Shown piece by piece: positions 25,265 to 40,904 of a stretch of DNA of 64,000 nt (position 1 is the stretch's first letter; each line of letters starts with the position of its first letter). The notes under the pieces were generated by a model, which was given only the letters and a program-made list of their open reading frames with translations, was not told the origin of the DNA and did no database searches. Made by a program: the position numbers and the translations under genes. Source of the stretch: a bacterium. GTDB lineage: Bacteria; Patescibacteriota; Microgenomatia; Levybacterales; UBA12049. Where the stretch lies: the NCBI GenBank assembly GCA_021813145.1, contig JAKALS010000003.1, positions 6,114 to 70,113 of the forward strand. The letters run 5' to 3'.

Positions 25265-26374
25265 ATGATAGTTACTCTTTTAACGGATAATTTAAGGGCA
25301 AAGCTTTCATTCTTAAACCACGCTGTTTCTCCAAACAGCCAACTGGAAATTCTTTCAAACTTCTTCCTAAAAGCGTCAAAAGGAAAACTAACCGTTAGCG
25401 CAACGGATCTTGAAATAGGCCTTTCGTCTTCCGTTCCGGCAAACGTGGAGGAGGAAGGGGAGACAACGGTTCCCGCAAAGACATTTTTTGATTTGATAAA
25501 CAACATAACGGAGGAAAAAATAACCCTAAAAACAAAGGGGACAAACCTGGAGTTGACGGGCAAAAAAATAAAGATGCTTTTTCAGACAATGCCCCCGGAG
25601 GAGTTCCCAAAGCTTTACGAAGAAAAAGGCGAAGAGGCGGCGGTTTTAAAAAAGGAACTGCTTTTAAAGGACTTTAACAAGGTTGTTTTTTCTGCAAGCG
25701 CGGATAGCTCAAGGCCTGCGCTGTCGGGGGTTTTGGTAAGAAAAGAAAAAGAAGGGTTTTTGATAGTTGCAACAGACGGGTACAGGCTATCTCTAAAAAA
25801 GAACGTCGCCTTCGAAACAAAAAAAGAAACAGGCATAGAAAGCCTTCTGTTGCCGGCAAGGGTAATTAGAGAACTGTTGTCTATAAAACAGGACGAAGAT
25901 ATACGTCTTAATGTTTCAGAAAAAAGCAACCAGGCGGTTTTTACACAGGGGGAAACGGTTTTGGTCGGAAGATTAATAGAAGCGGAATATCCTAACTACG
26001 AAAAAATAATCCCCACGGGTTTTGATACGAAAACGGGCTTTGATAGGGAAGAGATGCATAAAGCAGTGAAAATATGCTCTGTTTTTGCAAGAGAAACCGC
26101 AAATATAGTAAAACTCTCTTTAAAAAAAGACAAAATTGTTGTTTCGGCAAACACCCCAAGCGTAGGCGAGGACACGGTAGAGGTTGAAGCAAAAACAACG
26201 GGGGAGGAAAACGAAATAGCCTTTAACGGCAAGTATCTCCTAGACTTCCTCTCGAACACGGAAGAAGAGGAGGTTGTTTTTGAAATGTCTGGACCCCTTA
26301 ACGCCGGAGTTTTTAAACTCTCGGGCGACGACTCCTTTTTACATCTCATAATGCCCATCAGGGTGCAGGGTTAG
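25265..26374 (+). CDS. dnaN: DNA polymerase III beta sliding clamp
   Basis: dnaA-dnaN synteny; three-domain beta-clamp pattern, N-terminus MIVTLLTDNLRAKLSFLNHAVS. Confidence 0.9.
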   Translation: MIVTLLTDNLRAKLSFLNHAVSPNSQLEILSNFFLKASKGKLTVSATDLEIGLSSSVPANVEEEGETTVPAKTFFDLINNITEEKITLKTKGTNLELTGKKIKMLFQTMPPEEFPKLYEEKGEEAAVLKKELLLKDFNKVVFSASADSSRPALSGVLVRKEKEGFLIVATDGYRLSLKKNVAFETKKETGIESLLLPARVIRELLSIKQDEDIRLNVSEKSNQAVFTQGETVLVGRLIEAEYPNYEKIIPTGFDTKTGFDREEMHKAVKICSVFARETANIVKLSLKKDKIVVSANTPSVGEDTVEVEAKTTGEENEIAFNGKYLLDFLSNTEEEEVVFEMSGPLNAGVFKLSGDDSFLHLIMPIRVQG

Positions 26375-27364
26375 TTACTGTGCGGGTTGGGGGAAAGAAA
26401 CATTCCCGAAAATATTGTTTTCCATCCAGTTATAGGTGTTGGGGCATTGGGTTGGGAAGTTTGTTAGGGGAGTTGCTCCAAAAGGAAAATCTCTCCCCGG
26501 AGTGTTATAAAAAACAGTATCGGCTACGGCTTCGGCAAAGGACTCGGCTTGTCCTGTCCCGGCAATTCCACTTAAGTACGGATAGCTTTTTAAAAATCCG
26601 TCCACATAGCAACCCGCATCCTTGGACAGATAAGAGTTATAGGGAAAAGAACTCCAAAGAGCGCCATTTGCTATTCCTATAACGTGTCCCGTTTCGTGAA
26701 CCAGGGAAAATTTTTGCTCTTGAACAGAGCAGGACTCAAAACCCGTAAGACTTATATACATAACCCCATTTGTTTCATATGTCGAACCCCTGGCGTTTTG
26801 GCAACTGCTAAATGTTAGTAAAAGATGTATGGTTCCGGCTTTCTGCATAAGGCTTTTGTATTTGGCAGACCTAAAAGGAACAGCCAGGCCATTATACAGG
26901 TTAACAAGATAATTTAGATTAGAAGTATCGGATACGGCAACATTAAAGTCGCTTTTAAGCCTAGAGACCACGTTGGAGGCGGTAACAGCACCCCCCGGGG
27001 GAGTTGAAGACGTGGGTCCCGGGCTGTTGTTGGGGGAACCGCTGGTAGAGGGAGAGGCGCTGGTTAAATCCCCTCCGTTAACGGCGCTGGGGCTAACCAT
27101 GGAAACAATCATTACAACAAAAACTAAAACTCCTACTGAGATTAATAATAAAACAATCGCCGGGAGCCCTAGGGATCCGCATGCTGCGACAGCGCCTTCT
27201 TCGATGCCTTTTTTTGCAGCCTGTTTACCGAGTTGCTTCAAAACCTGCTTTCCAAGATATTTTCCTGCTTTTACCGAGTTTTTGGCATTGTTTAGTTTGT
27301 TGTACCCGGAGTTTATGTAGTCAACGGCTCCTTGGTTTTGCTGTTTTCCGTTGTTTTCGTCCAT
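26375..27364 (-). CDS. membrane-anchored zincin-like metallopeptidase (HExxH), last gene of the T4SS-like operon
   Basis: N-in TM helix (LPAIVLLLISVGVLVFVVMIV), Ser/Pro/Gly-rich linker, HETGHVIG motif. Confidence 0.55.
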   Translation of the reverse strand: MDENNGKQQNQGAVDYINSGYNKLNNAKNSVKAGKYLGKQVLKQLGKQAAKKGIEEGAVAACGSLGLPAIVLLLISVGVLVFVVMIVSMVSPSAVNGGDLTSASPSTSGSPNNSPGPTSSTPPGGAVTASNVVSRLKSDFNVAVSDTSNLNYLVNLYNGLAVPFRSAKYKSLMQKAGTIHLLLTFSSCQNARGSTYETNGVMYISLTGFESCSVQEQKFSLVHETGHVIGIANGALWSSFPYNSYLSKDAGCYVDGFLKSYPYLSGIAGTGQAESFAEAVADTVFYNTPGRDFPFGATPLTNFPTQCPNTYNWMENNIFGNVSFPQPAQ

Positions 27365-27381
27365 ATTTTAATAATAGCAAA

Positions 27382-29331
27382 TTAGGATAAACCGGGTTGA
27401 TTTTGCCCATTGCCCTGTCCGGGCAGCGGAGAAGTAGTAGTCGGATTCTCGGTGCCTACCGTCTCTTGTGTCATCGTAGGGCTTTGTGGGGGTACGCTTG
27501 ATGCGGTCCTCAAAGAAGAATTTTGTTCCTGCATTTTTAACAACTCCTGGGGATTCGATGTAATAAGGGTGTGTTCAAACGGAGCCGCAATAACCTTCAT
27601 CGCCACATGGCTTTGCCCCGCGAAAAACAGCCCTTCTCCGATGTCGGCCGAAAGCAAAAGTTCTTTTTCTCCCTCCGACAGATAGAATATCTGGGAAACC
27701 AAATCAACCTCGGACGGGCTTTGTTTTAAAAGCATCTGTATGGAGGAGTTGGAAAGAATTGCCTTCCCGTAATCGGTTGAAAGAAAATCCTGAACATCCT
27801 GGGTTGCGGTCGTTAGGGCAAGATAATATTTTCTCGATCTTTTTGCAACGCTATAAACAAAAGAGGCGGAATCGGGATACTTCATTACATACCAGGCCTC
27901 GTCCAGAATCAACAGTCTTTTTTTAAGGGTTTTTCTTACCCTTGTCCATACAAAATCCAATATTATGTGCATTGCGACAGGCCTTAATTCCTCTTCAAGC
28001 GCTTTTATGTTAAAAACCGTTAAGGGATTTTTAATGTCAAAATTAGACTGTTGGTTAAATATTCCGCTTAAGCTTCCTTTAATAAACTTCTCAAGTCTTA
28101 GCGCAAGCTCTCTTGCGGACGGGTCTTCCATTCCAAGAAGCACCTTGTATAAATCCTCCATTAAAGGGGGTTGATTTTTTTGTGTTTGGGGGTCAGCGGT
28201 AATCCCTTTTTGCCTATACGTCTCAACAAGCGCCCTGTCTAAAATTGCATCATGGGCGGCGTCCAAATCTCCCATTATTATTCTTAAAAGTCCGTGCAGG
28301 GACAAAATTTTAAGCCCTAACTCGTTTTCCCCTTCTTCGTAAAGCCCCGACATATCAAAGGGATTAATTCTCACGGGATCGGAAGGGGTAAAGGATACGT
28401 GCTCTCCCCCTAATGTTTTTGAAAGATTTTCATATTCCCCTTCGGGATCTATTATTATTACCTCGGTCCCGAACATAAACTGTCTCATCGCCTCAAGTTT
28501 TATAAGGTATGATTTTCCCGCTCCGGATTTTCCTAAGACCACTTCGTTTGCGTTTTCCAGGGAATAACGGTCAAAAATTATAAGAGAACCGTTTTGTTCG
28601 TTTACCCCGTACATGACGCCCTTGTCCTGGGCAAGAGTGGCCGAAGTAAACGGAAAAGTTGAGGCAAGAGAAGTTGTGTCCATGTTCCTCGTTATAAAGA
28701 GCCTATCCTGTGCAATCGGAACGGTTGATTTAAACCCGTCTTCCATTTGAAGGGTTGCGGTTTTTGAAAGCATCAGAATGGACCCAAGTGTGGTGCTAAG
28801 TCTTTTTGAAGCTTCGTCAAGATCTTTTACGCTTTCCGCGGAAAGCGTAATGTAAAGACTGAATTGAAAGAACCTCTCTACGCCTTTTGCCAGTTCTTCT
28901 TGTACTGCAAGCGCGTCGTCCAAAGAAGCTTTTACTTTAGGGTCTACGAGCTGGCCTTCTTCTATCTGCGATGAAATGGTGGCCTCCATTTCCGCTATTT
29001 TTCTTCTTAAATCCGATAAGACATCGGGGGAGGAAGTAGGATAAATAAACATAGAAATATTCATGGAATGGTCAAAATCAATAAGAGGCTGTAGCCAATT
29101 TGGCGAAACAAACCTCGGATACCCAACAACAAAAGAAGTTTTATAAAAATCTTCGCCTACTCTTATAAAATGGAAATCTACCTCTATTGAGGAAGGGGCT
29201 ATTACGTCGGTTAAAGAGACCATTCCTTTTTCGAGTTTTCCCATTGACGTTTTTTGCACCGGTCGGGGCGCTGTTTTTTGCTCTTGCGGTGCTGCCGTTT
29301 GCTGTTTTTGTTTTTTTCCGAATAAGCTCAT
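27382..29331 (-). CDS. virB4: VirB4/TrbE/TraC-family conjugative-type ATPase
   Basis: Walker A GKSGAGKS; Walker B LLILDEAW (DEAW is a hallmark of VirB4); size and N-terminal membrane-associated region. Confidence 0.85.
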   Translation of the reverse strand: MSLFGKKQKQQTAAPQEQKTAPRPVQKTSMGKLEKGMVSLTDVIAPSSIEVDFHFIRVGEDFYKTSFVVGYPRFVSPNWLQPLIDFDHSMNISMFIYPTSSPDVLSDLRRKIAEMEATISSQIEEGQLVDPKVKASLDDALAVQEELAKGVERFFQFSLYITLSAESVKDLDEASKRLSTTLGSILMLSKTATLQMEDGFKSTVPIAQDRLFITRNMDTTSLASTFPFTSATLAQDKGVMYGVNEQNGSLIIFDRYSLENANEVVLGKSGAGKSYLIKLEAMRQFMFGTEVIIIDPEGEYENLSKTLGGEHVSFTPSDPVRINPFDMSGLYEEGENELGLKILSLHGLLRIIMGDLDAAHDAILDRALVETYRQKGITADPQTQKNQPPLMEDLYKVLLGMEDPSARELALRLEKFIKGSLSGIFNQQSNFDIKNPLTVFNIKALEEELRPVAMHIILDFVWTRVRKTLKKRLLILDEAWYVMKYPDSASFVYSVAKRSRKYYLALTTATQDVQDFLSTDYGKAILSNSSIQMLLKQSPSEVDLVSQIFYLSEGEKELLLSADIGEGLFFAGQSHVAMKVIAAPFEHTLITSNPQELLKMQEQNSSLRTASSVPPQSPTMTQETVGTENPTTTSPLPGQGNGQNQPGLS

Positions 29332-29996
29332 TGGCTTTCCCTCCCTTTAACAACAGGAGTATTGATGTTGTCCTCGGCTTGCCCTGTTTCTATAGAGCTT
29401 TCGTTGTATATTTCGTAAAAAAGCTTTACCAGTTCTTCTTTTCCTAGGGTTTTTGCTTTAAGGTTTAGTCTTGAAAGTTGTGAGTGAAGAGACTCCGCTT
29501 TTGAATGGAGCGCTGTTTTTGCCGACTGGGCGAAGGAAGCCGCGTCAAAAGACTTTTTGTTTACGCTTGCAGCGGCAGCGCCCGCTCCCTTTTCAAGATA
29601 AGAAAAAGGTAAAACAATATAGAATTTTTTGTCCAAAACGGTATTCACCTTCACGAGCTCCTGAACAAAATCCCTGTAGAGTCTTATTTGCTCGGCAAGC
29701 ATCTGGTTCTGCGTTTTTTTTGCTTCATTTTCTAATAACTTTAAATAAGAGGAAATATCAAGTTTTTTGCTTCTAATGAGGATTTGTATAGGGAAAGACA
29801 GCGAATTCAGAAGCGCAGCGTAGGAGTAAATTTTAGAATCCTGTTCTTCTGCCGATAAAAGGGCAAAATTTGTTGCCGTGACTTCTATTACAAGACAAGC
29901 GTTTCCTCCTGTTAAAATTACTACATCATCAACGATATCCTGTATTTCGGTAAACTTTTGCGTTGTCGCGTTGATTTTTCGGGCAGTTTTGGCCAT
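29328..29996 (-). CDS. T4SS-associated hypothetical protein
   Basis: Co-oriented and translationally coupled (overlapping stop/start) with virB4; no recognisable motif. Confidence 0.4.
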   Translation of the reverse strand: MAKTARKINATTQKFTEIQDIVDDVVILTGGNACLVIEVTATNFALLSAEEQDSKIYSYAALLNSLSFPIQILIRSKKLDISSYLKLLENEAKKTQNQMLAEQIRLYRDFVQELVKVNTVLDKKFYIVLPFSYLEKGAGAAAASVNKKSFDAASFAQSAKTALHSKAESLHSQLSRLNLKAKTLGKEELVKLFYEIYNESSIETGQAEDNINTPVVKGRESQ

Positions 29997-31258
29997 TAGT
30001 TAAAAAGAGACCTCCTTAACTCTTCTCTTGTGTCTACGGAAATAACTTCTATGGGAAGAATAATCTGGCCTGTTGCGCTAAACTCTATTACATCAAACTT
30101 GTTCTCTCCCTTGGAGTCCTCAAATTCAATGGTATATGTGCCGTTCGTTATGGGGGTGGCAGAGGCAAATTGCCCAAGCGGATTAGTTTTAAATGCTCTT
30201 ACGGGATTCCCTTCGGCATCTTTTACCTCAACCAGAATATTTTGCAAGGGGTTCCCTCTCGGGTCCTTTACTATTCCCGTTACGATATTGGGAAACTCCG
30301 GCGCCAAGGGAAGGCCGACGCTTTTTCCCAGGTTTTGGGGGATACTTCTTACGTTCCTCGTTTCCTTTACCGGTTCCTGCGCAACTGAAGGCGTGTAAAC
30401 AGTCTCCCTGTTTGCGGTTAATTGTTTTTGTAAAAGTTCTATCTGTTTTTCAAGTTCCTGTTTTTGTTTTGCGGTTTCGGAAAGCATCGTTTCAAGCTCC
30501 ATTACTTTTTTGTGTGCTTCCGTATACTCTGTGGAGTTTATCTTTGACGTCTCGGCGGCTTTTGCTTCTGCAAGCTCCTGCTGAAGAATGAGAGTCTCTC
30601 TTTTTAGGGTTTCTTCTTCGTCCGAAGGTTTTTCTTCTTCTTGTTGCTGCCCTTGCTCCACCGGTATTTGTACTTGCGACGCGGCCGGAAGTTGTGTTGG
30701 TGGCTGCTGTTGTCCGGGAACGGGTACGTTTGCAAAAGCATGGGCGGGAGGAGCCTGTGGAATGGGATTTGTCTGCGTCTGTCCAGAATACATATTGCTT
30801 AAGGATTCAAAAAAAACCATTTCTTTTTGGTCTAACTGATTTTTTGGCCTCTTTGGAAGAGAATTTAGGTATGATTTTAATTCTTCACCCGAGAGAGAAG
30901 TAGTTTCTTTTTGGGGAACAAGCTTGGCGGAGCTTTTTTTAACCGGTTTTATATCTTCCCATAACTGGCCGCCGGTTTTTTGGTAAACAAATTGGGTCGG
31001 AGAAAAAATTGCTTTAATAAAATTTTCAAACATTAAATCCATGGGCCTTCCCTCTATCGGTAAAAAAGCCATTCCTACGCCTAAAAATATGGAAGTGACG
31101 GCAAGGGGAAGTTTTATAAGCATAAAAAAGGGGCTTGCGAACAAAAGCCAACCAAGTACAATTCCGCCTGCCAGATAGGCAAATTGTTTTATGGTCATAT
31201 CGCCGATCAGTTTAAACTGAAAGCCCGTTATGTCCTGTGGTATCGGATGATTTTCCAT
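29996..31258 (-). CDS. T4SS-associated membrane protein (VirB3-like N-terminal TM hairpin, coiled-coil and Gln/Pro-rich linker, C-terminal beta domain)
   Basis: Two N-terminal TM helices (FAYLAGGIVLGWLLFASPFFMLI, LPLAVTSIFLGVGMAFLPI); QQ-rich and heptad region; operon position. Confidence 0.45.
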   Translation of the reverse strand: MENHPIPQDITGFQFKLIGDMTIKQFAYLAGGIVLGWLLFASPFFMLIKLPLAVTSIFLGVGMAFLPIEGRPMDLMFENFIKAIFSPTQFVYQKTGGQLWEDIKPVKKSSAKLVPQKETTSLSGEELKSYLNSLPKRPKNQLDQKEMVFFESLSNMYSGQTQTNPIPQAPPAHAFANVPVPGQQQPPTQLPAASQVQIPVEQGQQQEEEKPSDEEETLKRETLILQQELAEAKAAETSKINSTEYTEAHKKVMELETMLSETAKQKQELEKQIELLQKQLTANRETVYTPSVAQEPVKETRNVRSIPQNLGKSVGLPLAPEFPNIVTGIVKDPRGNPLQNILVEVKDAEGNPVRAFKTNPLGQFASATPITNGTYTIEFEDSKGENKFDVIEFSATGQIILPIEVISVDTREELRRSLFN

Positions 31259-31365
31259 CTCTTAATTGTTATTTAATTGTATTTTCAGCATATAACGTGA
31301 AAAATTGCGTTTCAAGATTATCAAACTGGGTCAAAAAATATTGGAAATGAGGCTATCCGTGAAAA

Positions 31366-31680
31366 TTATGAACAATTTCCAAAACCGAAAGGTTTAGTAA
31401 TACAAGATGTTCCCGTAATTTGAGCTATTATAGCTATAATAGCGCCTGCAAGAAGTATTAGAATAAGCCCCAAAATGGCATAGGTAAGCGTTTTTCTTGC
31501 TCCCTCTACTTGTTTCGGGTCGCCGCCTGACGTTAAAAATTTTATTCCTGCGAAGATTATAAAAAAAACGGCGGTAACTCCGGCTAATCCTATAAGCCAA
31601 AAAACAAGATTATTGAAAACAACAGGAATACAATTTAGTGTTGCAACGCCGTTTTGAACGCAGTCTCCCCAAGGTTGCAT
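31366..31680 (-). CDS. VirB2/TrbC-like pilin paralog 1
   Basis: ~100 aa, helix-SGGD-helix architecture (FAGIKFLTSGGDPKQVEGARKTLTYAILGLILILLAG); Cys-containing N and C tails. Confidence 0.6.
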   Translation of the reverse strand: MQPWGDCVQNGVATLNCIPVVFNNLVFWLIGLAGVTAVFFIIFAGIKFLTSGGDPKQVEGARKTLTYAILGLILILLAGAIIAIIAQITGTSCITKPFGFGNCS

Positions 31681-31720
31681 GAAATAAGCGTAGCAAAAGG
31701 AAAACTAAAAGACAAGTGGG

Positions 31721-32128
31721 TTAACTGCAGGTTGGATTTGTAAGGCTTGGTATGCAGAATTTGCCCGTTAGCGGGTTTGAAATCCCTATAAGCTGGAAAA
31801 CTATATTTATGATGACAAATGCTGTTACGACTATTACTAACCCGATTATAGCTGCAACAATGTGTTTTCTTGCTGCGTCAACTGCCGCCTTATCCCCGCC
31901 CGAAAGAATCCATTTTATTCCTCCATAGATCAAAAAAGCTACCGCTACCAGTACCCCGACGATCAAAAGTAAGGATAAGATAAAAGATGGTATATTCCCA
32001 AGATTAACAGAAGTTGTAGGAGCGTAACCCGTCCCGGGGGCAATTGTAACCGTAATTTGCGCGAACGCATTTGAGGCTGCCAATAAATAGAACGATGCGG
32101 CAGAGATAAAACCCAGTGCTTTTTTCAT
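31721..32128 (-). CDS. VirB2/TrbC-like pilin paralog 2 (with signal peptide)
   Basis: Signal peptide MKKALGFISAASFYLLAASNAFAQ; core IYGGIKWILSGGDKAAVDAARKHIVAAIIGLVIVV; C-terminal CxxxxxxxxCS. Confidence 0.6.
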   Translation of the reverse strand: MKKALGFISAASFYLLAASNAFAQITVTIAPGTGYAPTTSVNLGNIPSFILSLLLIVGVLVAVAFLIYGGIKWILSGGDKAAVDAARKHIVAAIIGLVIVVTAFVIINIVFQLIGISNPLTGKFCIPSLTNPTCS

Positions 32129-32173
32129 TACTCTTTCTTGAGAATATAGTGTTTTTGCTGATTTGTCAAGAGC

Positions 32174-32509
32174 TTAGAACAATTTTCCTACTCCCAATAG
32201 TTGATAGACAAAATTGACAATGGTGCCCGCAAGAACAACGACTATAAGTCCGATTATCGAGAAAATAAGCCTTTGTCTTGCAGCCTGAATTTTTTGTTTG
32301 TCGCCGCCGGACATGGTCCACTGTATTCCGGCATAAATAATAAAAGCCATTGCTAAGACTACTGCGAGTAAAATTAAAATACTGCTCGCAATGGAAATAA
32401 GGGTAGTGCCGGTACTTATTCCGGCATCCGGTACGCCATTGGGCGGGGTGATGGTCACGTTTCCGTTGTTTCCCGGAACAGTTAACGCTAAAAGTTTCAT
32501 ATTATCCAA
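32174..32509 (-). CDS. VirB2/TrbC-like pilin paralog 3
   Basis: Core IYAGIQWTMSGGDKQKIQAARQRLIFSIIGLIVVVLAG. Confidence 0.6.
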   Translation of the reverse strand: MDNMKLLALTVPGNNGNVTITPPNGVPDAGISTGTTLISIASSILILLAVVLAMAFIIYAGIQWTMSGGDKQKIQAARQRLIFSIIGLIVVVLAGTIVNFVYQLLGVGKLF

Positions 32510-33572
32510 AGCCCGGAATGTGTAAAATATTAACCCCTATTATTTCAAGAATAACAAGAGAAAAAATAATAAACAATAGTCCCACTATTGCTGCGGTTAG
32601 TTGTTCCCTCGCTCCTTTTATCGCTTCCGGATTTCCTTGTGAGACCAAAAGCCTGTATCCGGATATTATTATCAGTAAAAGCGCCACTCCCCCCGAGAGG
32701 CTTAATATTAAGCCGAAAAGACTTGTTATAAGACTTTGGGGCTCTGTTCCTAACGTTCCAAGCGCGGTATCAACAGCAGTACAGGATCCTTTTACCGTAG
32801 AACCTAAATGGCAGGGTGAAGGCGGAGATTGATCTTGAGGGTTACCCGCGGAGTTAACCCCTCCCCCGTAAGTATCTACATAAAAAGTTGCATAACATGC
32901 CTGTTTTTCTAACAGGTGGGCGGGAGTGCACCCGTCGTTTATTTGCATATAATATCTTCCCGTTGAAAGCGGAACAAAACCAAATCCAGTACTATTCGTT
33001 AAATCTCTTCTTGTTACACAGCCGTCCCAAACGCTCCCCCCGTTGTTGTCATTAATGCGGATATAAGTGTGTAATTGATCGTCTGGATTGCCTGACGCAA
33101 GGGGACCTGTCATTTTTATTATTATATTATTGGTTGGCGTAAACGATTGGTTTAGGAATGAAATATTGCAACTTGTCCCTCCGCTTCCCGAGCCTGCGCT
33201 CCCAATCGTAAAAACAGGACTGTTGTTGCACAAATTATTTCCCGTGTCCGAAGAAAGAAAAAGCCCCACTTTGTAGGCTCCATTCCCAAAAGTTGAGGGA
33301 ACGGCGGCTGTCACTTTTCCGGAGGAGGCGGAGTAGGGGATTGGAACAGAATACCTAATGGTGTTAGTTCTTATAAAATTACCATTTAGGGAAACATAAT
33401 ATGTGAGATCCTTATTGTTTGCCAGATTCCCGTTTGTATCTATTGTAATTGTCCCGCCGTTATTAATACTGGAAGGACTGACGGAGCAGGCAAAAGAGGC
33501 GTAAGTTTTTTTAGGAAAAAATATTAAAAAAAGCAACAGTCCAAAAAAGACCAAAAGGAAAATTCTTTTCAC
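32502..33572 (-). CDS. secreted Gly/Ser/Asn-rich beta-type domain fused to C-terminal VirB2-like pilin module (candidate minor/tip pilin or adhesin)
   Basis: Signal peptide; C-terminus ISGYRLLVSQGNPEAIKGAREQLTAAIVGLLFIIFSLVIL shares the motif of the three pilins. Confidence 0.5.
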   Translation of the reverse strand: MKRIFLLVFFGLLLFLIFFPKKTYASFACSVSPSSINNGGTITIDTNGNLANNKDLTYYVSLNGNFIRTNTIRYSVPIPYSASSGKVTAAVPSTFGNGAYKVGLFLSSDTGNNLCNNSPVFTIGSAGSGSGGTSCNISFLNQSFTPTNNIIIKMTGPLASGNPDDQLHTYIRINDNNGGSVWDGCVTRRDLTNSTGFGFVPLSTGRYYMQINDGCTPAHLLEKQACYATFYVDTYGGGVNSAGNPQDQSPPSPCHLGSTVKGSCTAVDTALGTLGTEPQSLITSLFGLILSLSGGVALLLIIISGYRLLVSQGNPEAIKGAREQLTAAIVGLLFIIFSLVILEIIGVNILHIPGFG

Positions 33573-33608
33573 ATTTTTATCGTACTCTAATTTTTAAGAA
33601 AAATGCAA

Positions 33609-34937
33609 CTAGGGGGTAAATTTAAAACCACGGCCTTTCACGGTTTGGATATAAACAGGGCTATTCGGGTTGTCTTCAATTTTTTTTCTTAATCTTGATA
33701 TAAGTTGGTCTATTGCCTGTTCGGTTACCCCTGCGGTTGACTGCATTTCTCCCCACACCGCACTTACCACTTCATTTCTTTCTACAACTTTATTCCCGTT
33801 TAATATAAAAAATTTTAAAAGTTTAAACTCCGAAGATGTAAGCTTGTCCGAAAGAACTACTTGGCCTTTTTTTATTTGGTTCGAATTTTTGTCAAAAACT
33901 ATTTTTCCGGTTTCCTCCGAGCGTATCCTTGCGCTATCTTTTAAATAATCCCTTAATAGGGGGATTTGAAGTGAATTATCTTTGACAAGGCCCAATTTTC
34001 TCAGGAATTCAACGTCAATGCTTCCAAAATTTAAAAGCGAAATTTTTGTTTGTTCGTCGGGATTTAGAGCATTCCAAATCGCAAACAATGCACTTCTTAC
34101 GGGCATTTGTTTAAGTAGAAACTCCTTAATCTCTCCGTTAATTTTTTGATTTACAGAAAGCACTGCCTCCAGAGAGTGTCTTGTAAGATTTCCGTGTCCG
34201 CCCGTTAATGAAATTACATCTTCGATAATATTATTTTTTATTTTTTTGCCTGTAATTTTTTCAAGATAGGCTATTCTAAAATTCATTCCCGCCCTGTCAT
34301 AAAGGGTAAGGTAAATAAGCTTCCCGGCTGTAAATTCGTAAAAATCAGAAAAAAATGTCGGCTCAAGGATGTCCTCGATCGGTCTTGAGGAAGAAATTAC
34401 AACAGAAAATCTGTACTTTGCCCTGTTTCTTAAAATCCTAAGATTGGAAAAAAAATCAGGGGACAAAGAAGGAATATGCTCTTCAAACCTGTCCAAAAGA
34501 AAAACAACGGTAAACTCTTTTTCTATAGATAAAAAATCTATTGCTTTTTTTAATCCGTCAAATAAAACAAGCTCGTCATTGGCCTTAAGGCTTTCCTTAA
34601 AGAAGGAATTAATTTTTTCGTATTCGTTGTCCATCCGTCTTTCCCTAAGGGAGTCCAAAAGCCCCAAAAAAATAAATTTAGTTACCTCTAGAATCGTTTT
34701 ATTTTTTATTTCCGAAAAATTTAAAAGGACAAAATGGAACCATTTTTGATTTTCCCCAAGATGTTTTTCTTTTACTTTTTTATTATAGGCAAGAAGCCCC
34801 AAGAGATTTGACCTCCCTACTCCGGGAACCCCTATTATTTGGCAGGAATTCCCCTCCTTAATGAATTCCAATATTTTTTTTATCTCGGAAAATCTCGTGT
34901 CCTCCGGATATAGTGATTCAAAGTGACTGGGTTCCAT
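33609..34937 (-). CDS. NTPase-like domain + C-terminal OmpR/PhoB-type winged-helix regulator; first gene of the T4SS-like operon
   Basis: Deviant P-loop IIGVPGVGRSNLLGLL; C-terminus EVVSAVWGEMQSTAGVTEQAIDQLISRLRKKI...IQTVKGRGFKF; paralog of 13652-14995. Confidence 0.6.
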   Translation of the reverse strand: MEPSHFESLYPEDTRFSEIKKILEFIKEGNSCQIIGVPGVGRSNLLGLLAYNKKVKEKHLGENQKWFHFVLLNFSEIKNKTILEVTKFIFLGLLDSLRERRMDNEYEKINSFFKESLKANDELVLFDGLKKAIDFLSIEKEFTVVFLLDRFEEHIPSLSPDFFSNLRILRNRAKYRFSVVISSSRPIEDILEPTFFSDFYEFTAGKLIYLTLYDRAGMNFRIAYLEKITGKKIKNNIIEDVISLTGGHGNLTRHSLEAVLSVNQKINGEIKEFLLKQMPVRSALFAIWNALNPDEQTKISLLNFGSIDVEFLRKLGLVKDNSLQIPLLRDYLKDSARIRSEETGKIVFDKNSNQIKKGQVVLSDKLTSSEFKLLKFFILNGNKVVERNEVVSAVWGEMQSTAGVTEQAIDQLISRLRKKIEDNPNSPVYIQTVKGRGFKFTP

Positions 34938-35012
34938 GGTTAGTACATTGTAATTTTTTTGTTAGGTAAATATCAAGCAAAGCGAGAAATCTTTTTCTAA
35001 ACTTCGGTTAAT

Positions 35013-37604
35013 ATGACAGAGCAGCAACCAAGACCAATTAATTTGACAAACCAAACCAATCTAAATAGACTGGAAGGTGAAAGGATAATTATGCCTGAGC
35101 CGGGCGGACAGGAGCAGCAGGCTCCGATAACGCCAAGACAAGAAGAGGTAATACAAGAAGCAGTTAATCCGCCGGAAGGAATAGATAGGCCCGCAGAAGA
35201 AGCGGCAGGGATTTCTCCCAGGAGACCTGAACATAGGGAAAGCCATGCGGAAAGAGTGGAAAGAACATTCGAAGAGTTTACGAGAAGCATTCAAACCAAA
35301 GACACTCTTTCCCAGCTTGCAAGCGATACTCCGGATTTTGCAAAAACACCCGAGCTTAAAAAATTTGTAGATGAGCTTGAGCCCGGAGGAGATTTAATAA
35401 GATATTTTGCAGATTTTATTACAAACCCCGAGCAGGATTATGTAGACGAAGAAGGGGCACGCTATAGAATATCTACTGCTTCAAGAAGAGTCCTTTTTGA
35501 ATGGGCGCTTGAAAAAATCATAGGACTTCCCGAACAGGGGTCTCCAGAGGCGAGATATTCGATAGACTCCTTTCAGGCCAGAGAAAACCTTACCCTCCTA
35601 AAAGCCCTTAGCCTTTCCCGCTTTAATAATGAATTCTCAAGGTATATAGGAAGCATGATAGAAATCAGGGAAATGGCCCACGAACTTCGAAGAAACCTGA
35701 CCCAGGGCGATGCCTATAAAGAATTCATGCAGAAGGAGTTAAAGGCTCACGGAATTGATTTTATGAGAAACGAAGTCTCGGGAGTAAAAGACGTAATTTC
35801 ATTATACGAGCTTTTTACGGGTCTTAAGGTTTCGCAAAAAAGGGAATGGTTAAGCGCGGGAGACGTTGAGGATATAGACCACGAAGTTAAAGAGGCAATA
35901 ATGGCTCTTAAAGGAAAAAGCCAGATAAAGCAGGGAGAAAGGCCTTTGACGGATTGGGAAATAGATAGGGCGCTTTCTATAGGGAAAACACTTTTTGCAG
36001 GTACACAAAGGTTTGCAATGTATACCGTTTTGGGCTCTATTCCGACTCAAACGGCGGAAAGAGCAGGCTCGGTCCCTTACGAATATATAGTAAGAACACT
36101 TGCCCCTATTAAAATTACAGCTGCCAGGTATTTTACTTCTGCGGGACAAAGGTATCTTCAAGAAAGGATTCTCGATAATTATAAAAATGGCAAAAAAACG
36201 TCTTCCCTTTTTGGTATTGCCGAAAATTCCTGGGCGATGAACAACTTTAACGCATTTGATGTCGAAAGTCACAGTTGGAGGTCGCAGTTAATGTTTTTAG
36301 GGGATATGAGATTCAGGATAAAAACCGGGGAAGACGCAGAAGGAAACCCTGTTTATAAAGAAGGCAATGTTTTGGAATACTTTAACGACGAGCTGACTAG
36401 GTTGGCAGAGAGCACGGGAGCTGAATATGATCCCGCTTTAGGACTTGAGGGGGGTTCGGATAAAGAATTTTCCAATAACGAAAATGTTGCAGCCCTGGCT
36501 CTGGGGCAAAAACTTTACCTTTCAGTTTTGGGAAAATATTCACCTTTTAGCGAAGAGTTAAAAAGAGGAATATACCGAAAAATTGCAATTTACGATCCTC
36601 TTGCTTTTACTTCTCTTTCTCCCGAAGTGTTAAGCTCTCTTTCTCCCGAGCAAAAAAGAGTTTGGCAGGGAATGGCAATAAAAATGGGAATGGCAAATTC
36701 CATAAGGCTCAGGAAAGAAGGAGAAGAATATTTTGACGAACATGAACATAGGAAAACTTTGGATATAGACAGCCTGAAACAAGAGGCGGGAGAAACATAT
36801 GATTTTTCGACTAAAAAACTTAAAGATGTATCACAGATAAGTGATGACTATAAATATCAGATATTGTCCAAATACTTTTCCGAGGAGTACGGGAATGCAT
36901 TAACCGGAGAAGAGCAAGAGGTTCTAAAAACAATCATAAGAACTTCTTTAAGCGGAGAATTTGTAAATAATGTGGTCTCTGCGGAAAAACCTTTCACTTT
37001 TATAATCGACGATGCCCCCCATGTTGCCTGGAGCAAAACAAGGGACGGAGTTGGGGGTTTGGGAGACGAAAACCTTTTTAGGATTTTGCTTTCGGACCAG
37101 GGCAACCTTGCGGAATCCTGGGGTGCGCTAAACGGTTTGATTGAACATCCTCCGGCCGACCCGTCCAAGGCATTTATAACTTTCGTACAAAAAAGAGCAC
37201 TTGTTACGGGAAGAGGAGAGGCCCAAGGAAAACTGGAGCCGTTTTTAAACGCCTGGTTGGATATGGCTTCTACTTACGACCGTTCTAAATGGATAGGGGC
37301 AATAGAAAAAGCCACAAGGCACCCAAGGTCGGAAATGGAAAAATTTTACAGGGGGAATTATATTTCCATGGATGAACAGGATAAGTCGATATTTTTAGAC
37401 TCATTGGCCCAACAAGGAGCGATCGGGACAAATATAGCGAGAGGGCCTTCACAACTTGAAGAATTGAAGAAAAGAAATAAGGCTTATATTATAGATAACC
37501 TCAGGAGGTCCGCAAGGATGATATTGCTCCTTTTAGGTCCAACGCTGGGAATTCAATTTCTAAAACTTATATTTCCCGATGAGATAACAAAAGGACTTAA
37601 GTAA
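35013..37604 (+). CDS. large acidic hypothetical protein, divergent from the T4SS-like operon
   Basis: 863-aa ORF with no TM segments or recognisable catalytic motifs; true start may be internal. Confidence 0.4.
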   Translation: MTEQQPRPINLTNQTNLNRLEGERIIMPEPGGQEQQAPITPRQEEVIQEAVNPPEGIDRPAEEAAGISPRRPEHRESHAERVERTFEEFTRSIQTKDTLSQLASDTPDFAKTPELKKFVDELEPGGDLIRYFADFITNPEQDYVDEEGARYRISTASRRVLFEWALEKIIGLPEQGSPEARYSIDSFQARENLTLLKALSLSRFNNEFSRYIGSMIEIREMAHELRRNLTQGDAYKEFMQKELKAHGIDFMRNEVSGVKDVISLYELFTGLKVSQKREWLSAGDVEDIDHEVKEAIMALKGKSQIKQGERPLTDWEIDRALSIGKTLFAGTQRFAMYTVLGSIPTQTAERAGSVPYEYIVRTLAPIKITAARYFTSAGQRYLQERILDNYKNGKKTSSLFGIAENSWAMNNFNAFDVESHSWRSQLMFLGDMRFRIKTGEDAEGNPVYKEGNVLEYFNDELTRLAESTGAEYDPALGLEGGSDKEFSNNENVAALALGQKLYLSVLGKYSPFSEELKRGIYRKIAIYDPLAFTSLSPEVLSSLSPEQKRVWQGMAIKMGMANSIRLRKEGEEYFDEHEHRKTLDIDSLKQEAGETYDFSTKKLKDVSQISDDYKYQILSKYFSEEYGNALTGEEQEVLKTIIRTSLSGEFVNNVVSAEKPFTFIIDDAPHVAWSKTRDGVGGLGDENLFRILLSDQGNLAESWGALNGLIEHPPADPSKAFITFVQKRALVTGRGEAQGKLEPFLNAWLDMASTYDRSKWIGAIEKATRHPRSEMEKFYRGNYISMDEQDKSIFLDSLAQQGAIGTNIARGPSQLEELKKRNKAYIIDNLRRSARMILLLLGPTLGIQFLKLIFPDEITKGLK

Positions 37605-39203
37605 TTATCCTCTTCCAAACATTCTACCTATGAAGGCTCGTCCTAATTTTCGCTCGCCATATTCAGGAGGAGCGCCTTTTGTTGCCCCTTCCTTTAGTGC
37701 GATTACCTCTCTTGATGCAGCTATTGTGCCACCCACATTTCTTACTACATTGGTGGGATAGGCGACTCCGGCAGAAACAGCCTGGCCGATTGGACCAAGG
37801 TCAATCTTGGGAGCCTTAAAGGCAGCTTTGGTTATGTTGACAACATGCGGAGTGGTAAAGATAACACCCAGTGCTATTAATGCCCCAACCGTGTTTGTGG
37901 CTCCCGGGTTTCCTATTAAAGGAGGGACAAATTGCCCCGCCTGATAAGAACTTCCAAATGAGTCTATAAACAACTTTCCAATTAAAAACATTGCTATTGT
38001 TACTGGAAATGCCGAAAGATTTCCAAGCATGTCCCTGAGCCATGCGCTGAACCCGACATTAGAAGAGTTACCGGTCCCGGGAATTAAGCCTCCTATTATC
38101 CAAAAAGGCGCAAAAATTACGTCTACAAGAGTGAATATATAAGCAGAAAGAAGCGCAAACCAAAGCCTGAAAAGAGACCACAAAATGGCAACTGTTATAA
38201 CTATAAAAGCAAGTATTCCGCCTACGAATGCGAGTAGTCCGCCTATCACGGCCCCAAGAACTGTTCCCACGGGGTTTGTTAAAAGATCTACAAAACCGTT
38301 TCCGGCAGTTGTCTGGGCAGCTCCTCCATTGGAGAAAAGACTAAGAATGATGTTGGCAATAGAAGTTGAGGCGTTTGTGGCGACACCTAAAATGCCTCCA
38401 TTGTAAGCGTCATTTGCAAAATTAAGCGGTGTAGTGTAAAGATTTGACGTAAGGTGTCCGGCCTGAGCGCTTGCGCTGGCGGAATTTATGATATTAGGGT
38501 CTGCTTGGGTAAGCACATTTATAATAAGATAAATAGCTACCCACATTACATCTACCAACAAACCTGCTATCGCAAAAGAAAAAGTAACAAACAAAATACC
38601 TATTATTAGTTTTGGAATCTGATTTTGAATTGTCATTACGGTTCTGGGGTCGATTTTTATTCTAAGCATTATCGCAAAACCGATGATTATAAAAATCAAT
38701 ACAAAAATTAAATAGACGAGGTTTCTAAATACGATCCAGGCATTCATTAGGGGAGAGAGCTGATCAAATCCGGTTTCTTGTTTTACGGTTGCGGCATAAC
38801 TCGGCTTTGTAATCCCGAAATTGTCCCTTACATAGGCAATGAAGTCGCTTGTATGAACGGGCGGATTAAGAGTCATGGTAATAAGGCTACCCATAACCGC
38901 AATAGCCCCTCCGCTATTCTGGACAAATCCTATTTTTCCCGTTTTTTTGTCAACCCCTAAGCATTGAGCCTTAGGGTTTGAAGGATCAACTCCGGCAAGC
39001 TGGCAGCTTATTGCTGAGAGGGTTTGGATCATTACATTTTGAGTCAATGTATTCATGTTTTGAGGAACATCGCTATTGGTATTGGCATTTAGATAGGGAT
39101 TTGTTTGAGAAGAATCTGATTGGGCAAAGGTTAGGGTTTTAGCAAAAAACAGTCCCGTTATGAGAAGAAGTCCAATAAAAAACAAACGGACAGAGATTTT
39201 CAT
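37605..39203 (-). CDS. VirB6/TrbL-like polytopic membrane protein
   Basis: Signal peptide plus >=6 TM helices with Gly/Ala-rich segments; size and topology typical of VirB6; locus context. Confidence 0.5.
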   Translation of the reverse strand: MKISVRLFFIGLLLITGLFFAKTLTFAQSDSSQTNPYLNANTNSDVPQNMNTLTQNVMIQTLSAISCQLAGVDPSNPKAQCLGVDKKTGKIGFVQNSGGAIAVMGSLITMTLNPPVHTSDFIAYVRDNFGITKPSYAATVKQETGFDQLSPLMNAWIVFRNLVYLIFVLIFIIIGFAIMLRIKIDPRTVMTIQNQIPKLIIGILFVTFSFAIAGLLVDVMWVAIYLIINVLTQADPNIINSASASAQAGHLTSNLYTTPLNFANDAYNGGILGVATNASTSIANIILSLFSNGGAAQTTAGNGFVDLLTNPVGTVLGAVIGGLLAFVGGILAFIVITVAILWSLFRLWFALLSAYIFTLVDVIFAPFWIIGGLIPGTGNSSNVGFSAWLRDMLGNLSAFPVTIAMFLIGKLFIDSFGSSYQAGQFVPPLIGNPGATNTVGALIALGVIFTTPHVVNITKAAFKAPKIDLGPIGQAVSAGVAYPTNVVRNVGGTIAASREVIALKEGATKGAPPEYGERKLGRAFIGRMFGRG

Positions 39204-39317
39204 CCTAAAATCAGTTTGTCCTATTTTGTGGCTTATGTCAAGCGCAGCAGTCGTATTGGCGGAGAGAGGCGGGATTTGGTTCGACTATGCTCACCATAAA
39301 CTTCTCATCCCTTGGTG

Positions 39318-39405
39318 CGGAGGGGGCGGGATTCGAACCCGCGATATCCTTGCGGATATACCTGCTCTCCAAGCAAGCGCACTAGACCAACTATGCGACC
39401 CCTCC
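39318..39405 (-). tRNA. tRNA-Ser (anticodon GGA)
   Basis: Hand fold: acceptor GGAGGGG/CCCCTCC, 3-bp D stem, anticodon loop TTGGAGA, long variable arm with GCAA loop, T-loop TTCGAAT, discriminator G. Confidence 0.85.
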
Positions 39406-39406
39406 A

Positions 39407-39447
39407 AACTAGATGCTAGAAACTAGATACTAGATGTTAGATGTTTC
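39407..39447. repeat. 7-nt tandem repeat (Nctagat)x5 abutting tRNA-Ser and overlapping the nudix 3' end
   Basis: actagatgctagaaactagatactagatgttagatg read directly. Confidence 0.85.
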
Positions 39448-39866
39448 TGAGCCTCTTTCCAGACCTCTTTGTCCGATTTATAGGTTAATCTGTTTTCAAC
39501 TTCTTCCGGTTTTATCCACTCAACATTTTCCATTTCCCAATCATGCTCACTAATGTCTCCCGATAAATATTCCATTAAGTAATAATATACGGTTTTTTTT
39601 ATTTTCTCGCCCTCCAGAACGTACCAATACTGAACAGGACTTAAAGCCTTTATTATTTTACCGCTAACACCTGTTTCTTCTTTTACTTCCCTTACCGCCG
39701 TTTGTTCTTTTCCCTCTCCTTTTATGTGGTCTCCGATAATACCTTTAGGAAAAACCCAACCGTGGTGTTGGGAATGCTGAGACACCAAGATCAGGATTGC
39801 TGATTGCTGATTACTGATTACTGATTTTTTAAATACGACTCCGCCGGCAGAAAATTCAAATCTCAT
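39423..39866 (-). CDS. NUDIX hydrolase
   Basis: Nudix box GEGKEQTAVREVKEETGV; GGVVFKK N-terminal strand. Confidence 0.85.
   Translation of the reverse strand: MRFEFSAGGVVFKKSVISNQQSAILILVSQHSQHHGWVFPKGIIGDHIKGEGKEQTAVREVKEETGVSGKIIKALSPVQYWYVLEGEKIKKTVYYYLMEYLSGDISEHDWEMENVEWIKPEEVENRLTYKSDKEVWKEAQKHLTSSI
39793..39830. repeat. 7-nt tandem repeat (Nctgatt)x5 inside the nudix 5' coding region
   Basis: aggattgctgattgctgattactgattactgatttttt read directly. Confidence 0.85.
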
Positions 39867-39881
39867 AATTCTTACTTACTG

Positions 39882-39968
39882 CGGAGAGGGTGAGATTCGA
39901 ACTCACGGTCGCCTTTCGACGACAGCGGTTTTCGAAACCGCCGCACTAGTCCGCTATGCGACCTCTCC
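39882..39968 (-). tRNA. tRNA-Ser (anticodon CGA)
   Basis: Hand fold: acceptor GGAGAGG/CCTCTCC, anticodon stem GCGGT/ACCGC, loop TTCGAAA, long variable arm, T-loop TTCGAAT, discriminator G. Confidence 0.85.
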
Positions 39969-39973
39969 GTTTG

Positions 39974-40046
39974 CGTGCCCGAGAGGAATCGAACCTCCAA
40001 CCGCCTGGACCGCAACCAAGTGTTCTATCCGTTGAACTACGGGCAC
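39974..40046 (-). tRNA. tRNA-Arg (anticodon GCG; unusual for bacteria)
   Basis: Hand fold: acceptor GTGCCCG/CGGGCAC, D stem GTTC/GAAC, anticodon stem CTTGG/CCAGG, loop TTGCGGT, T-loop TTCGATT. Confidence 0.75.
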
Positions 40047-40088
40047 TTGCAAAGTGTATTTTACTTTATTGGAGGATTCTTAGCAAAC

Positions 40089-40667
40089 CTAAATAGTTCC
40101 TTCGAGGGGAAAATTCCTTGTAAGCCAGTCTGCGGCTTTGTCCATAAAAGTGGGTTTTATATATTCTCGGTAGGGAAGATAAGGCAAAAGTATACTTTTT
40201 ACATGGTCTTCGCTTACATCTCCGAGCGTTATCGTTAGCTCTCCGGGTATAAAAGCATGGGTTCTTATGTGTAAGACCCTGACTCCCTGTCTGTTCCAAA
40301 AATAAAAGTCGTAGAGCTCCTGCCATAAGAAAAAATGGTCTTCTATTGTTACCCCCTCCGTACTTATTCTGAAGTGAAAATCCCTGGGTGGTACGCTTGC
40401 CAGGGCAAAAGCTACAAAGACAAGCGATAAAACAACAAGCATAAGCATATATTGCGAAAAAAGAAAAAGAATAATTTCTACGAAAAGCATAATAAGAAGA
40501 CTCGTTAAATAATATTGTTTTGTCCTTTTTTTAAAAGGTCTTCCCGGGGCCGTCCATGCAAGAAGAGTTTTAACCTGCGGAACTTCTTCGGTTGTTTCTT
40601 TAATTTCCTTTGATGATTCTTTTTGCGGAGTTTCTTTTTTAACTTCAGGTGCTTTTTGGACAGTCAT
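40089..40667 (-). CDS. membrane protein with bacterial PH (bPH_2/YdbT-like) domain
   Basis: Two TM helices followed by FHFRISTEGVTIEDHFFLWQELYDFYFWNRQGVRVLHIRT. Confidence 0.55.
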   Translation of the reverse strand: MTVQKAPEVKKETPQKESSKEIKETTEEVPQVKTLLAWTAPGRPFKKRTKQYYLTSLLIMLFVEIILFLFSQYMLMLVVLSLVFVAFALASVPPRDFHFRISTEGVTIEDHFFLWQELYDFYFWNRQGVRVLHIRTHAFIPGELTITLGDVSEDHVKSILLPYLPYREYIKPTFMDKAADWLTRNFPLEGTI

Positions 40668-40850: not shown

Positions 40851-40904
40851 TTGCTTGACATTATAGTTTAACTTTGGCTTAAACGCTAGAGTTACGGGGG
40901 TAAT

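Follow-up and report, generated by a model that had tools for sequence, protein, structure and literature searches.

A conjugation-derived type IV secretion or pilus locus beside the replication origin of a Levybacterales genome and its probable role in host contact

What does a type IV secretion system (T4SS) do in a bacterium in which no genes for DNA processing lie next to it? This question is raised by positions 26375 to 39203 of a stretch of 64,000 nucleotides (hereafter the window; contig JAKALS010000003.1 of assembly GCA_021813145.1, positions 6,114 to 70,113) from a member of the Levybacterales (Patescibacteriota, Microgenomatia). The T4SS of the Patescibacteria is a leading candidate for how ultrasmall epibionts exploit host bacteria and, to our knowledge, the only T4SS that is essential to its bearer. 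Our analysis indicates that the locus is very probably a vertically inherited, origin-proximal T4SS or pilus of the Patescibacteria type, which derives from the conjugation machinery of the MPF_FATA class and was repurposed for host contact. It is a typical Levybacteria member of a class of T4SSs that has already been published (Wang et al. 2023, PMC10633639; Quinonero-Coronel et al. 2025, PMC12102498; a 2025 FEMS review, PMC12857230). In kind, the system encoded in the window is not new. The window gives a clean, lineage-wide picture for the Levybacteria, with as incremental points a divergent VirB6, an explicit split of VirB4, a modular hydrolase slot, a regulator with an Arg in its Walker A motif together with its promoter block, and an orphan family of large proteins. 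The features concerned, with lengths in amino acids (aa), are the following, the last one, a homologue of the type IV coupling protein (T4CP), being located outside the window.

23796–26374, plus strand: dnaA–dnaN, with Bac_DnaA (3.6e-64) and DNA_pol3_beta domains in Pfam; abuts the T4SS locus
26375–27364, minus strand: anchored extracytoplasmic zincin-like protein, 329 aa, directly after virB4, with HETGH, a downstream Glu and two invariant Cys
27382–29331, minus strand: VirB4-type ATPase, 649 aa, equivalent to a canonical VirB4 without its N-terminal third; GKSGAGKS as Walker A, DEAW as Walker B
29328–29996, minus strand: TrsD-like protein, 222 aa, apparently the split-off N-terminal domain of VirB4; overlaps the start of virB4 by 4 nucleotides
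29996–31258, minus strand: PrgI/VirB3-like membrane protein, 420 aa, continued by a coiled-coil/low-complexity linker and ending in a CarboxypepD_reg-like beta-sandwich
31366–31680, minus strand: VirB2-like pilin 1, 104 aa, PF18895 T4SS_pilin (5.6e-11), C-terminal Cys pair
31721–32128, minus strand: VirB2-like pilin 2, 135 aa, PF18895 (2.2e-8), signal peptide ending in AFA, C-terminal Cys pair
32174–32509, minus strand: VirB2-like pilin 3, PF18895 (4.5e-10), 111 aa from a TTG start and 108 aa in the public gene call
32502–33572, minus strand: secreted pilin-fused protein, 356 aa, with a signal peptide, a variable N-terminal domain of about 250 aa and PF18895 at residues 276–344 (1.5e-8)
33609–34937, minus strand: one-component regulator, 442 aa, with a P-loop-like N-terminal domain and a C-terminal winged helix of the OmpR/PhoB type
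34936–34976, minus strand: promoter-like element TTGATA-18-TACAAT upstream of the regulator, from a promoter scan; candidate operator
35013–37604, plus strand: divergent orphan protein, 863 aa, with the N-terminal peptide LTxQxNxxxLxxxGxIFM, a disordered linker, a globular all-alpha body of large size and a hydrophobic C-terminal tail
37605–39203, minus strand: divergent VirB6/TrbL-like polytopic protein, 532 aa, signal peptide, periplasm-like N-terminal domain
L088:17892–20276, plus strand: VirD4/T4CP-like membrane ATPase, 794 aa, about 6.8 kb past window position 64000 and about 41 kb from virB4

The nine co-directional minus-strand genes that an earlier note on this DNA had read from 34937 to 26375 are all present in the open reading frame (ORF) map, with the 863-aa gene divergent from them and the 532-aa polytopic gene beyond it. 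At its other end the locus adjoins dnaN and dnaA, and the cumulative GC skew reaches its minimum at approximately 22–24 kb of the window, which together place the locus at the replication origin. The nine-gene operon runs towards this origin and would be head-on to replication if oriC is located upstream of dnaA (around yidC–rnpA); virB4 is opposite in orientation to dnaN in all related loci. On either side the locus is bordered by housekeeping genes, over about 26 kb to the left and about 25 kb to the right. They include those for primase, sigma-70, purA, purB, ruvABC, a class I aminoacyl-tRNA synthetase (tRNA-synt_1), yidC and rnpA, as well as penicillin-binding proteins, PGK, ribose-5-phosphate isomerase and ribulose-phosphate 3-epimerase. 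The G+C content of the locus is close to that of its flanks, and no integrase was found in the 64-kb window.

This arrangement is not restricted to a single genome. With VirB4 as query against one genome per GTDB species, 80 related loci were obtained (VirB4 identity 62–86%), to which the window proteins were compared by tblastn; counts for the upstream side are based on the 49 loci with at least 7.5 kb of upstream flank and those for the downstream side on the 52 loci with at least 8 kb. From the VirB6-like gene to yidC, the gene order is the norm of the lineage in the Levybacteria: VirB6-like gene, large divergent gene, regulator, pilin fusion, pilins, PrgI, TrsD and VirB4, followed by a variable stretch of 0.3–6 kb and then dnaN, dnaA, rnpA and yidC. 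PrgI and TrsD were encountered in 49 out of 49 loci and at least three pilin domains in 43 out of 49, and on the downstream side of virB4 all 52 have dnaN and dnaA. Such a fixed position on the dnaN/dnaA side points to vertical inheritance and argues against a mobile island. The earlier note considered the locus an unusual variant on account of its regulator, its many pilins and its protease. This view has lost its basis, since the same gene order extends across the 80 species-level loci: a Levybacteria locus normally includes this regulator, an array of pilins and, behind virB4, a gene of the wall-hydrolase type, and the class of system had already been published. A minority of Levybacteria genomes deviates upstream of PrgI, where in L010, L018, L031 and L076 the pilin array and regulator are absent and giant ORFs of approximately 1000–2500 aa occur instead. 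The informatively named genomes among the 80 are Candidatus Levybacteria/Levyibacteriota or “Patescibacteria group”; many metagenome-assembled genomes of the SPIRE type with a Levybacteria-type locus (among L001–L075) are titled “uncultured Gammaproteobacteria bacterium,” apparently a placeholder or mislabel.

The family to which the machinery belongs is most clearly indicated by its ATPase. Both motifs reported in the earlier note, GKSGAGKS and DEAW, are seen in the translation of 27382–29331. With 389 bits (3.3e-116) where the curated cut-off is 325, the protein belongs to NCBIfam NF045971 (conju_CD1110; model positions 174–734 of 752). It also matches P-loop_TraG in Pfam (1.8e-26), and its sole significant relative in the PDB is 4ag5, the VirB4 of Thermoanaerobacter (1.1e-47). 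The ATPase is, therefore, of the VirB4 type and not of the FtsK/HerA type. Among its best 120 homologues, every named protein is from Patescibacteria or Levybacteria. The 222-aa protein encoded directly upstream, left as an unknown in the earlier note, matches the VirB4_plasma model (NF045975) at positions 98–282 (9.6e-11, below the curated cut-off), and the 649-aa ATPase matches positions 292–893 of the same model. There is also a match to TrsD (NF041427, 2.3e-5, likewise below the cut-off) and a precomputed TraC-like match (PF26593). From the tiling of the model, the TrsD/TraC-like matches and the 4-nucleotide overlap of the two genes we infer that this protein is the TrsD-type split-off N-terminal domain of VirB4. 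A comparison by hhalign of the 222-aa family with the N-terminus of its own VirB4 family gave no match, so that the assignment leans on the NCBIfam models; this null result is expected if the two proteins are complementary rather than duplicated. The TrsD-like protein occurs in 79 of the 80 related loci, and TrsD is the commonest T4SS protein of Patescibacteria (PMC12102498). The next gene encodes a 420-aa protein that matches PrgI (PF12666; 34.2 bits against a cut-off of 27) and, slightly under the cut-off, CarboxypepD_reg (1.9e-7). Full-length orthologues of this PrgI/VirB3 fusion are present in at least 60 loci.

Upstream of it, all four PF18895 T4SS_pilin matches of the locus exceed the cut-off of 26.6 bits (34.5–42.8 bits), and the pilin paralogues are 30–46% identical to each other. 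In the 356-aa fusion protein the pilin part alone is conserved in 53 loci, while coverage exceeds 50% in only 5 loci; this protein is a candidate for a minor or tip pilin with a host-binding module. Two of the small pilins (31366–31680 and 31721–32128) end in a Cys-x(8-10)-Cys loop (…SCITKPFGFGNCS, …FCIPSLTNPTCS) similar to the loop that a disulphide bond closes at the C-terminus of type IV pilins; neither pilin 3 nor the fused pilin has it.

The polytopic protein at the far end of the locus is more divergent. The 532-aa protein itself yielded no sequence match in Pfam, NCBIfam or the PDB, and the profile search of its family against the PDB was not significant. However, 5 out of 34 orthologues (46–62% identical) match TrbL/VirB6 (PF04610, best 1.3e-7), three further homologues carry a precomputed PF04610 match, and a Foldseek search of the PDB with its AlphaFold model returned TrwI/VirB6 chains of 7o3v (R388) as the top three (probability 0.97, E 0.064), although the model is of moderate confidence (pLDDT 65). 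We accept the protein as a probable VirB6 with this caveat, in agreement with the VirB6-like label that the earlier note had given it. The phylum-wide survey describes VirB6 as “scarce” in Microgenomatia, ascribing this to divergence, and VirB3 as mostly unlinked to virB4 in this group (PMC12102498). In view of this reported scarcity, a divergent VirB6 is worth recording.

Directly after virB4 a 329-aa protein is encoded that had been called an anchored HExxH protease. The anchor and the motif are indeed present: 16 homologues have H223, E224, H227, E274, C252 and C307 without exception, and E274, at 47 residues past the second His of the motif, is the likely third zinc ligand. Membership of a curated peptidase family, in contrast, was not found (Peptidase_M57, 14.7 bits against a cut-off of 21), and the profile of the family returned nothing significant from the PDB (E 0.33). 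The genes behind virB4 in the related loci have in common an N-terminal module that consists of an acidic or basic cytoplasmic stretch with xAVDRxN followed by a transmembrane helix. A hidden Markov model (HMM) of this anchor module, built from the CHAP-, SLT- and M23-bearing virB4 neighbors of other loci without the window protein, has 26375–27364 as its sole match in the window (E 3e-8); it replaced a jackhmmer search that had drifted into the pilins via the transmembrane/low-complexity region. The head domains that occupy this slot in other loci are CHAP, SLT, Peptidase_M23, M23 with YkuD, lysozyme-like SLT_3 and C39-like domains. As judged from slot and anchor, the HExxH protein would fill the VirB1/PrgK wall-hydrolase position, a modular slot in which heads are swapped, and its own head may be an exchanged catalytic domain that acts in wall remodelling. 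Wall hydrolases of the PrgK/VirB1 type hold this slot in Gram-positive T4SSs, and in Southlakia epibionticum it is held by an essential lysozyme (PMC12102498). The earlier statement that no lytic transglycosylase is present is literally true for the window, but the functional slot of this enzyme is occupied by the HExxH protein. Two tandem class A penicillin-binding proteins are encoded near a SpoIID-like protein at 51482–59116 on the minus strand, from which it follows that the organism makes peptidoglycan, which the T4SS must cross.

The regulator was announced as an NTPase fused to a winged helix-turn-helix (wHTH) domain. Its wHTH domain scores well above the threshold (Trans_reg_C, 9.1e-21, 74.2 bits against a cut-off of 26.2). 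The NTPase part is doubtful, since 21 of 22 orthologues have a Walker A of the form G-x-P-G-x-G-R-S, in which the catalytic Lys has become Arg (GKS in the remaining one). Pfam shows no receiver domain (Response_reg), and its N-terminal 340 aa match only weakly AAA_16 (16.2 bits against 32.6) and AAA_35, with a conserved Walker B (hhhhDRFEE). The N-terminal domain is more likely nucleotide-sensing or a pseudo-ATPase. The protein resembles the OmpR/PhoB family (including receiver-less members such as CadC and ToxR) in its Trans_reg_C domain; in the PDB it comes closest to effector domains of response regulators and to CadC and ToxR. It differs from this family in lacking a receiver domain and a transmembrane segment and in having its wHTH behind a P-loop-like domain of approximately 340 aa with an Arg Walker A. 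The gap between the regulator and the pilin-fusion gene measures just 36 bp, so that the regulator probably heads the operon; it lies upstream of the pilins in 32 of the 49 loci with enough flank, in 27 of them on the same strand. Direct repeats of TAACAA/TTACAA/TAACCA with a spacing of 11 bp, the geometry used by OmpR-family proteins, overlap the −10 box of the promoter-like element, with matches at 34947–34964 and 34936–34953. We hypothesize that these TTACAA-type repeats are the operator of the regulator. A block of 31 bp at this place is near-identical in other Levybacteria loci: 7 GTDB loci match the pattern exactly, and further Levybacteria loci are visibly similar (L081 and L083 are copies of the present genome). 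A paralogue of the regulator (447 aa, approximately 23% identical) is encoded at 13652–14995 on the minus strand. It has kept the Trans_reg_C C-terminus, its P-loop is fully degenerate (GIKRVGIS) and the Asp of Walker B is absent; it adjoins a DUF4012 protein and polysaccharide/O-antigen genes and has orthologues in L072 and L028.

Between the regulator and the VirB6-like gene, most loci whose flank reaches that far contain a divergent ORF of 860–1240 aa. Twenty-one of these large ORFs fall into three BLAST clusters, two of which are linked by hhalign (97.5% probability). All three have in common an N-terminal peptide of approximately 25 residues, LTxQxNxxxLxxxGxIFM. An HMM made from two of the clusters matches members of the third (E 2e-8 to 1e-3), always N-terminally, and the HMM of the N-terminal peptide did not match anything outside this large-gene slot. 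The predicted structure of the 863-aa protein is a confident all-helical fold unlike any solved, comparison of its family with the PDB by sequence and by profile gave nothing significant, and PHROGs returned nothing for the orphan proteins. That it would be a hidden relaxase or T4CP was ruled out, as it has no P-loop, no HUH/Rep and no matching fold. The 863-aa protein is a candidate cargo or adaptor, and its N-terminal peptide could mark a translocated effector, or an adaptor that replaces the coupling protein absent from the cluster. It has a precedent in kind in the S. epibionticum cluster, where SEML1_0007 and SEML1_0011 are large, helical and essential proteins. The pseudo-ATPase/winged-helix regulator, in turn, may autoregulate the pilus operon via the TTACAA repeats. 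That the Levybacteria T4SS loci thereby carry two additions missed by the surveys, i.e., an orphan large protein with a new N-terminal recognition signal and a pseudo-ATPase/wHTH autoregulator, is a tentative proposal that we regard as rather doubtful. The core is complete and syntenic in this lineage, and the regulator, the promoter block and the orphan protein that accompany it provide handles for regulation and cargo.

Taken with the family matches for VirB4, TrsD, PrgI, the pilins and the VirB6-like protein, these data support the claim of the earlier note that this is the core of a monoderm T4SS with VirB2-like pilins, which we relate to MPF_FATA. The closest described system is that of S. 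epibionticum, whose T4SS carries pilins, is without recognizable relaxase or coupling protein and is essential for epibiotic growth (PMC10633639). Its cluster SEML1_0006–0019 is similar in possessing VirB4, a TrsD-like protein, PrgI/VirB3, VirB6, a PF18895 array and a gene in the wall-hydrolase slot behind virB4, in the absence of an in-cluster relaxase or T4CP, and in its chromosomal position near dnaA. TrsD, PrgI, VirB2 arrays, the absence of relaxase and proximity to dnaA are also features of the phylum-wide survey (PMC12102498). There are also differences. S. epibionticum belongs to the Saccharimonadia and the present locus to the Levybacteria (Microgenomatia); its VirB6-like protein has 1088 aa against 532 aa here; its hydrolase slot holds a lysozyme instead of an unclassified HExxH domain; and no counterpart of an NTF2/VirB8-like gene was recognized here. 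Moreover, an OmpR-type wHTH/P-loop regulator heads the operon here, which is not mentioned in the available parts of PMC10633639 and PMC12102498. With the MPF_FATA systems of the Firmicutes (prgI–prgJ–prgK–prgL of pCF10, CD1110 of C. difficile CTn2 and trsC–trsD–trsE of pGO1) the locus has in common the order VirB3 (PrgI/TrsC), TrsD, VirB4 and a protein in the slot of the anchored hydrolase, a CD1110 equivalog score above the cut-off, and the monoderm condition without VirB7, VirB9 and VirB10. It differs from them in its VirB2-like pilins, which are absent from Gram-positive systems (PMC12857230), in the lack of a relaxase, an adjacent T4CP or a PrgB-type adhesin, and in its fixed place at the chromosomal origin instead of on a plasmid or an integrated conjugative element (ICE). 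The ICE of Mycoplasma offers a further parallel, as the TrsD-like protein and the ATPase tile its Mbov_0397 VirB4 model (the tiling of NF045975 described above) and the pilins match its Mbov_0395 family (NF045849; 5.8e-7 for pilin 1, and 2.5e-5; all below curated cut-offs); its VirB4, however, is a single polypeptide, and the element has a DDE transposase and a T4CP.

These comparisons suggest how the apparatus may work. A sigma-70-like promoter ahead of the regulator would drive the nine-gene operon. The wHTH of the regulator would bind the TTACAA-type repeats over its own −10 box, its P-loop-like domain with Arg in Walker A probably senses rather than hydrolyses a nucleotide, and the protein would in this way control how strongly the operon, and perhaps the divergent 863-aa gene as well, is expressed. 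The PrgI/VirB3 fusion, the VirB6-like protein and the split VirB4, whose families and split are apparent from the matches, would form a membrane platform that extracts and polymerizes the three VirB2-like pilins, with the variable pilin-fused protein built in as a host-binding minor or tip subunit. The anchored HExxH protein, if it is an active enzyme, would cut the wall of the cell itself or that of the host locally. The complete apparatus would then mediate adhesion and the transfer of protein or other cargo rather than conjugative transfer of DNA.

Several points weigh against this interpretation. We know of no cultured member of the Levybacteria, and in terms of expression, pilus and cargo alike the apparatus is known here from its genes alone. 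No VirB8-like (NTF2) protein was recognized among the genes of the locus, and VirB6 was assigned through orthologues and a weak fold match. The number of matches to the operator-repeat pattern across the window is not above chance, so that the operator assignment is only a hypothesis. The relaxase search consisted of family scans of ORFs over the window, approximately 6 kb to its left and approximately 9.5 kb to its right, and the VirD4-like ATPase nearby makes coupling of substrates, even of DNA, conceivable. Adhesion, export and import cannot be told apart from sequence.

How far do other explanations account for the same genes? The first to be weighed is that the locus is an ICE or its remnant, whose T4SS mobilizes DNA by means of the distant VirD4-like ATPase and a relaxase that went unrecognized; very divergent relaxases are conceivable (PMC12102498). 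The VirB4 falls within the conjugation family CD1110, and a tRNA cluster abuts the VirB6-like gene. The flanks, which were read on the 119-kb contig ENA ERZ27237541 k141_2442470 via look-ups of window proteins, contain small housekeeping and stress genes to the contig end on the left, and on the right GAPDH, cytidylate kinase, NrdR and ribonucleotide reductase, followed by the 794-aa protein. The latter is a genuine T4CP homologue (TrwB_AAD_bind, 37.9 bits against 20.5; TraG-D_C, 27.8 against 22; T4SS-DNA_transf above the cut-off; DUF8128), with TrwB and DotL as best PDB relatives; a homologue search with its N-terminal fragment returned short fragments only. Its gene is preceded by two small genes, one for a 366-aa protein that ends in a zinc ribbon and one for a 138-aa protein, and followed by a convergent gene for a 288-aa tyrosine recombinase, which would fit an ICE. 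The claim that VirD4 is missing thus applies inside the window and not to the region approximately 6.8 kb past its right end. The condition under which the earlier note would have conceded an ordinary ICE, i.e., a relaxase or VirD4 immediately outside, is matched in part by this VirD4-like gene, but it lies among housekeeping genes and no relaxase was found in the window or in the scanned flanks. More than 30 kb with core genes (penicillin-binding proteins, PGK, GAPDH, ribonucleotide reductase) separates it from the locus. Patescibacteria genomes as a rule have T4CP homologues that are encoded at a distance from virB4; in S. epibionticum, their cultured relative among the Saccharibacteria, this homologue is dispensable whereas the T4SS is essential (PMC12102498). 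The VirD4-like ATPase may or may not work with the present T4SS. Neither the Pfam-scanned ORFs of the window nor the precomputed annotations that supplement them, on which the gene absences reported here are based, include a match to a relaxase, T4CP, VirB11, VirB9/10 or SLT, in line with the earlier claim that no DNA-processing genes adjoin the locus. The 863-aa orphan has neither a relaxase nor a P-loop fold, and the G+C content is the same as that of the flanks. Above all, the same dnaN/dnaA-side position in all 52 related genomes with enough flank indicates vertical inheritance, and on this fixed origin-proximal synteny the ICE is rejected. To judge from gene content and position, the locus is not an ICE, a reading that we hold to be highly improbable, and the earlier view that it is not a self-transmissible element is borne out by its chromosomal place beside dnaA/dnaN without adjoining relaxase or T4CP.

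An import machine comparable to archaeal Ced or Helicobacter ComB, which would pull DNA, nucleotides or other host material into a nutritionally dependent cell instead of exporting anything, is quite improbable as well. In Ced, too, a VirB4-like ATPase goes together with VirB2-like pilins and there is no relaxase (PMC12102498), Patescibacteria lack nucleotide biosynthesis (PMC10633639), and the window VirB4 does weakly match CedB (5.5e-15, far below the cut-off). Conjugative VirB4 families, however, are matched far more strongly than CedB, and no CedA-like channel protein was recognized in the locus. Furthermore, loss of comEC in S. epibionticum abolishes competence while the cells remain viable and the T4SS is still essential (PMC12857230), which implies that DNA uptake is not the essential role of the T4SS in that species. 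Fibres of the VirB2 type that attach to the host without anything being translocated, i.e., a pilus for adhesion only, would account for there being four genes with a pilin domain, of which one adds a variable and potentially host-binding domain, as well as for a locus with no coupling protein and no recognizable effector. Yet Patescibacteria already adhere by means of type IV pili (PMC10633639; PMC12857230), a T4CP homologue is encoded elsewhere in the genome, and the fast-evolving 863-aa protein, conserved in position and in its N-terminal peptide, is a candidate cargo or adaptor, so that a role in adhesion only seems unlikely. Repurposed conjugation machinery that serves host contact, with both adhesion and transfer, agrees best with these observations.

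Some further observations concern the surroundings of the locus. Five tRNA genes are located on the minus strand at 39317–40850 and 47420–47510 (tRNA-Ser with GGA, CGA, TGA and GCT, and tRNA-Arg(GCG)), the first of them 114 bp from the VirB6-like gene. An RNase H/RVT_3-like gene of 139 aa is found at 18782–19201 (minus strand) amid polysaccharide genes. Past the tRNA cluster, at 40089–45625, there is a block of orphan genes, which possibly includes more T4SS-linked or host-interaction genes. Its products are a membrane protein of 192 aa, a coiled-coil protein of 468/494 aa that ends in a transmembrane tail, a 124-aa protein, and an Ala/Gly-rich protein of 964 aa that contains a glycine-zipper segment; the gene for the last of these lies where the local G+C content is raised (0.475) and the GC skew is strong. 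In L021, L040 and L046, a homologue of the 124-aa protein is encoded beside PrgI or the pilins.

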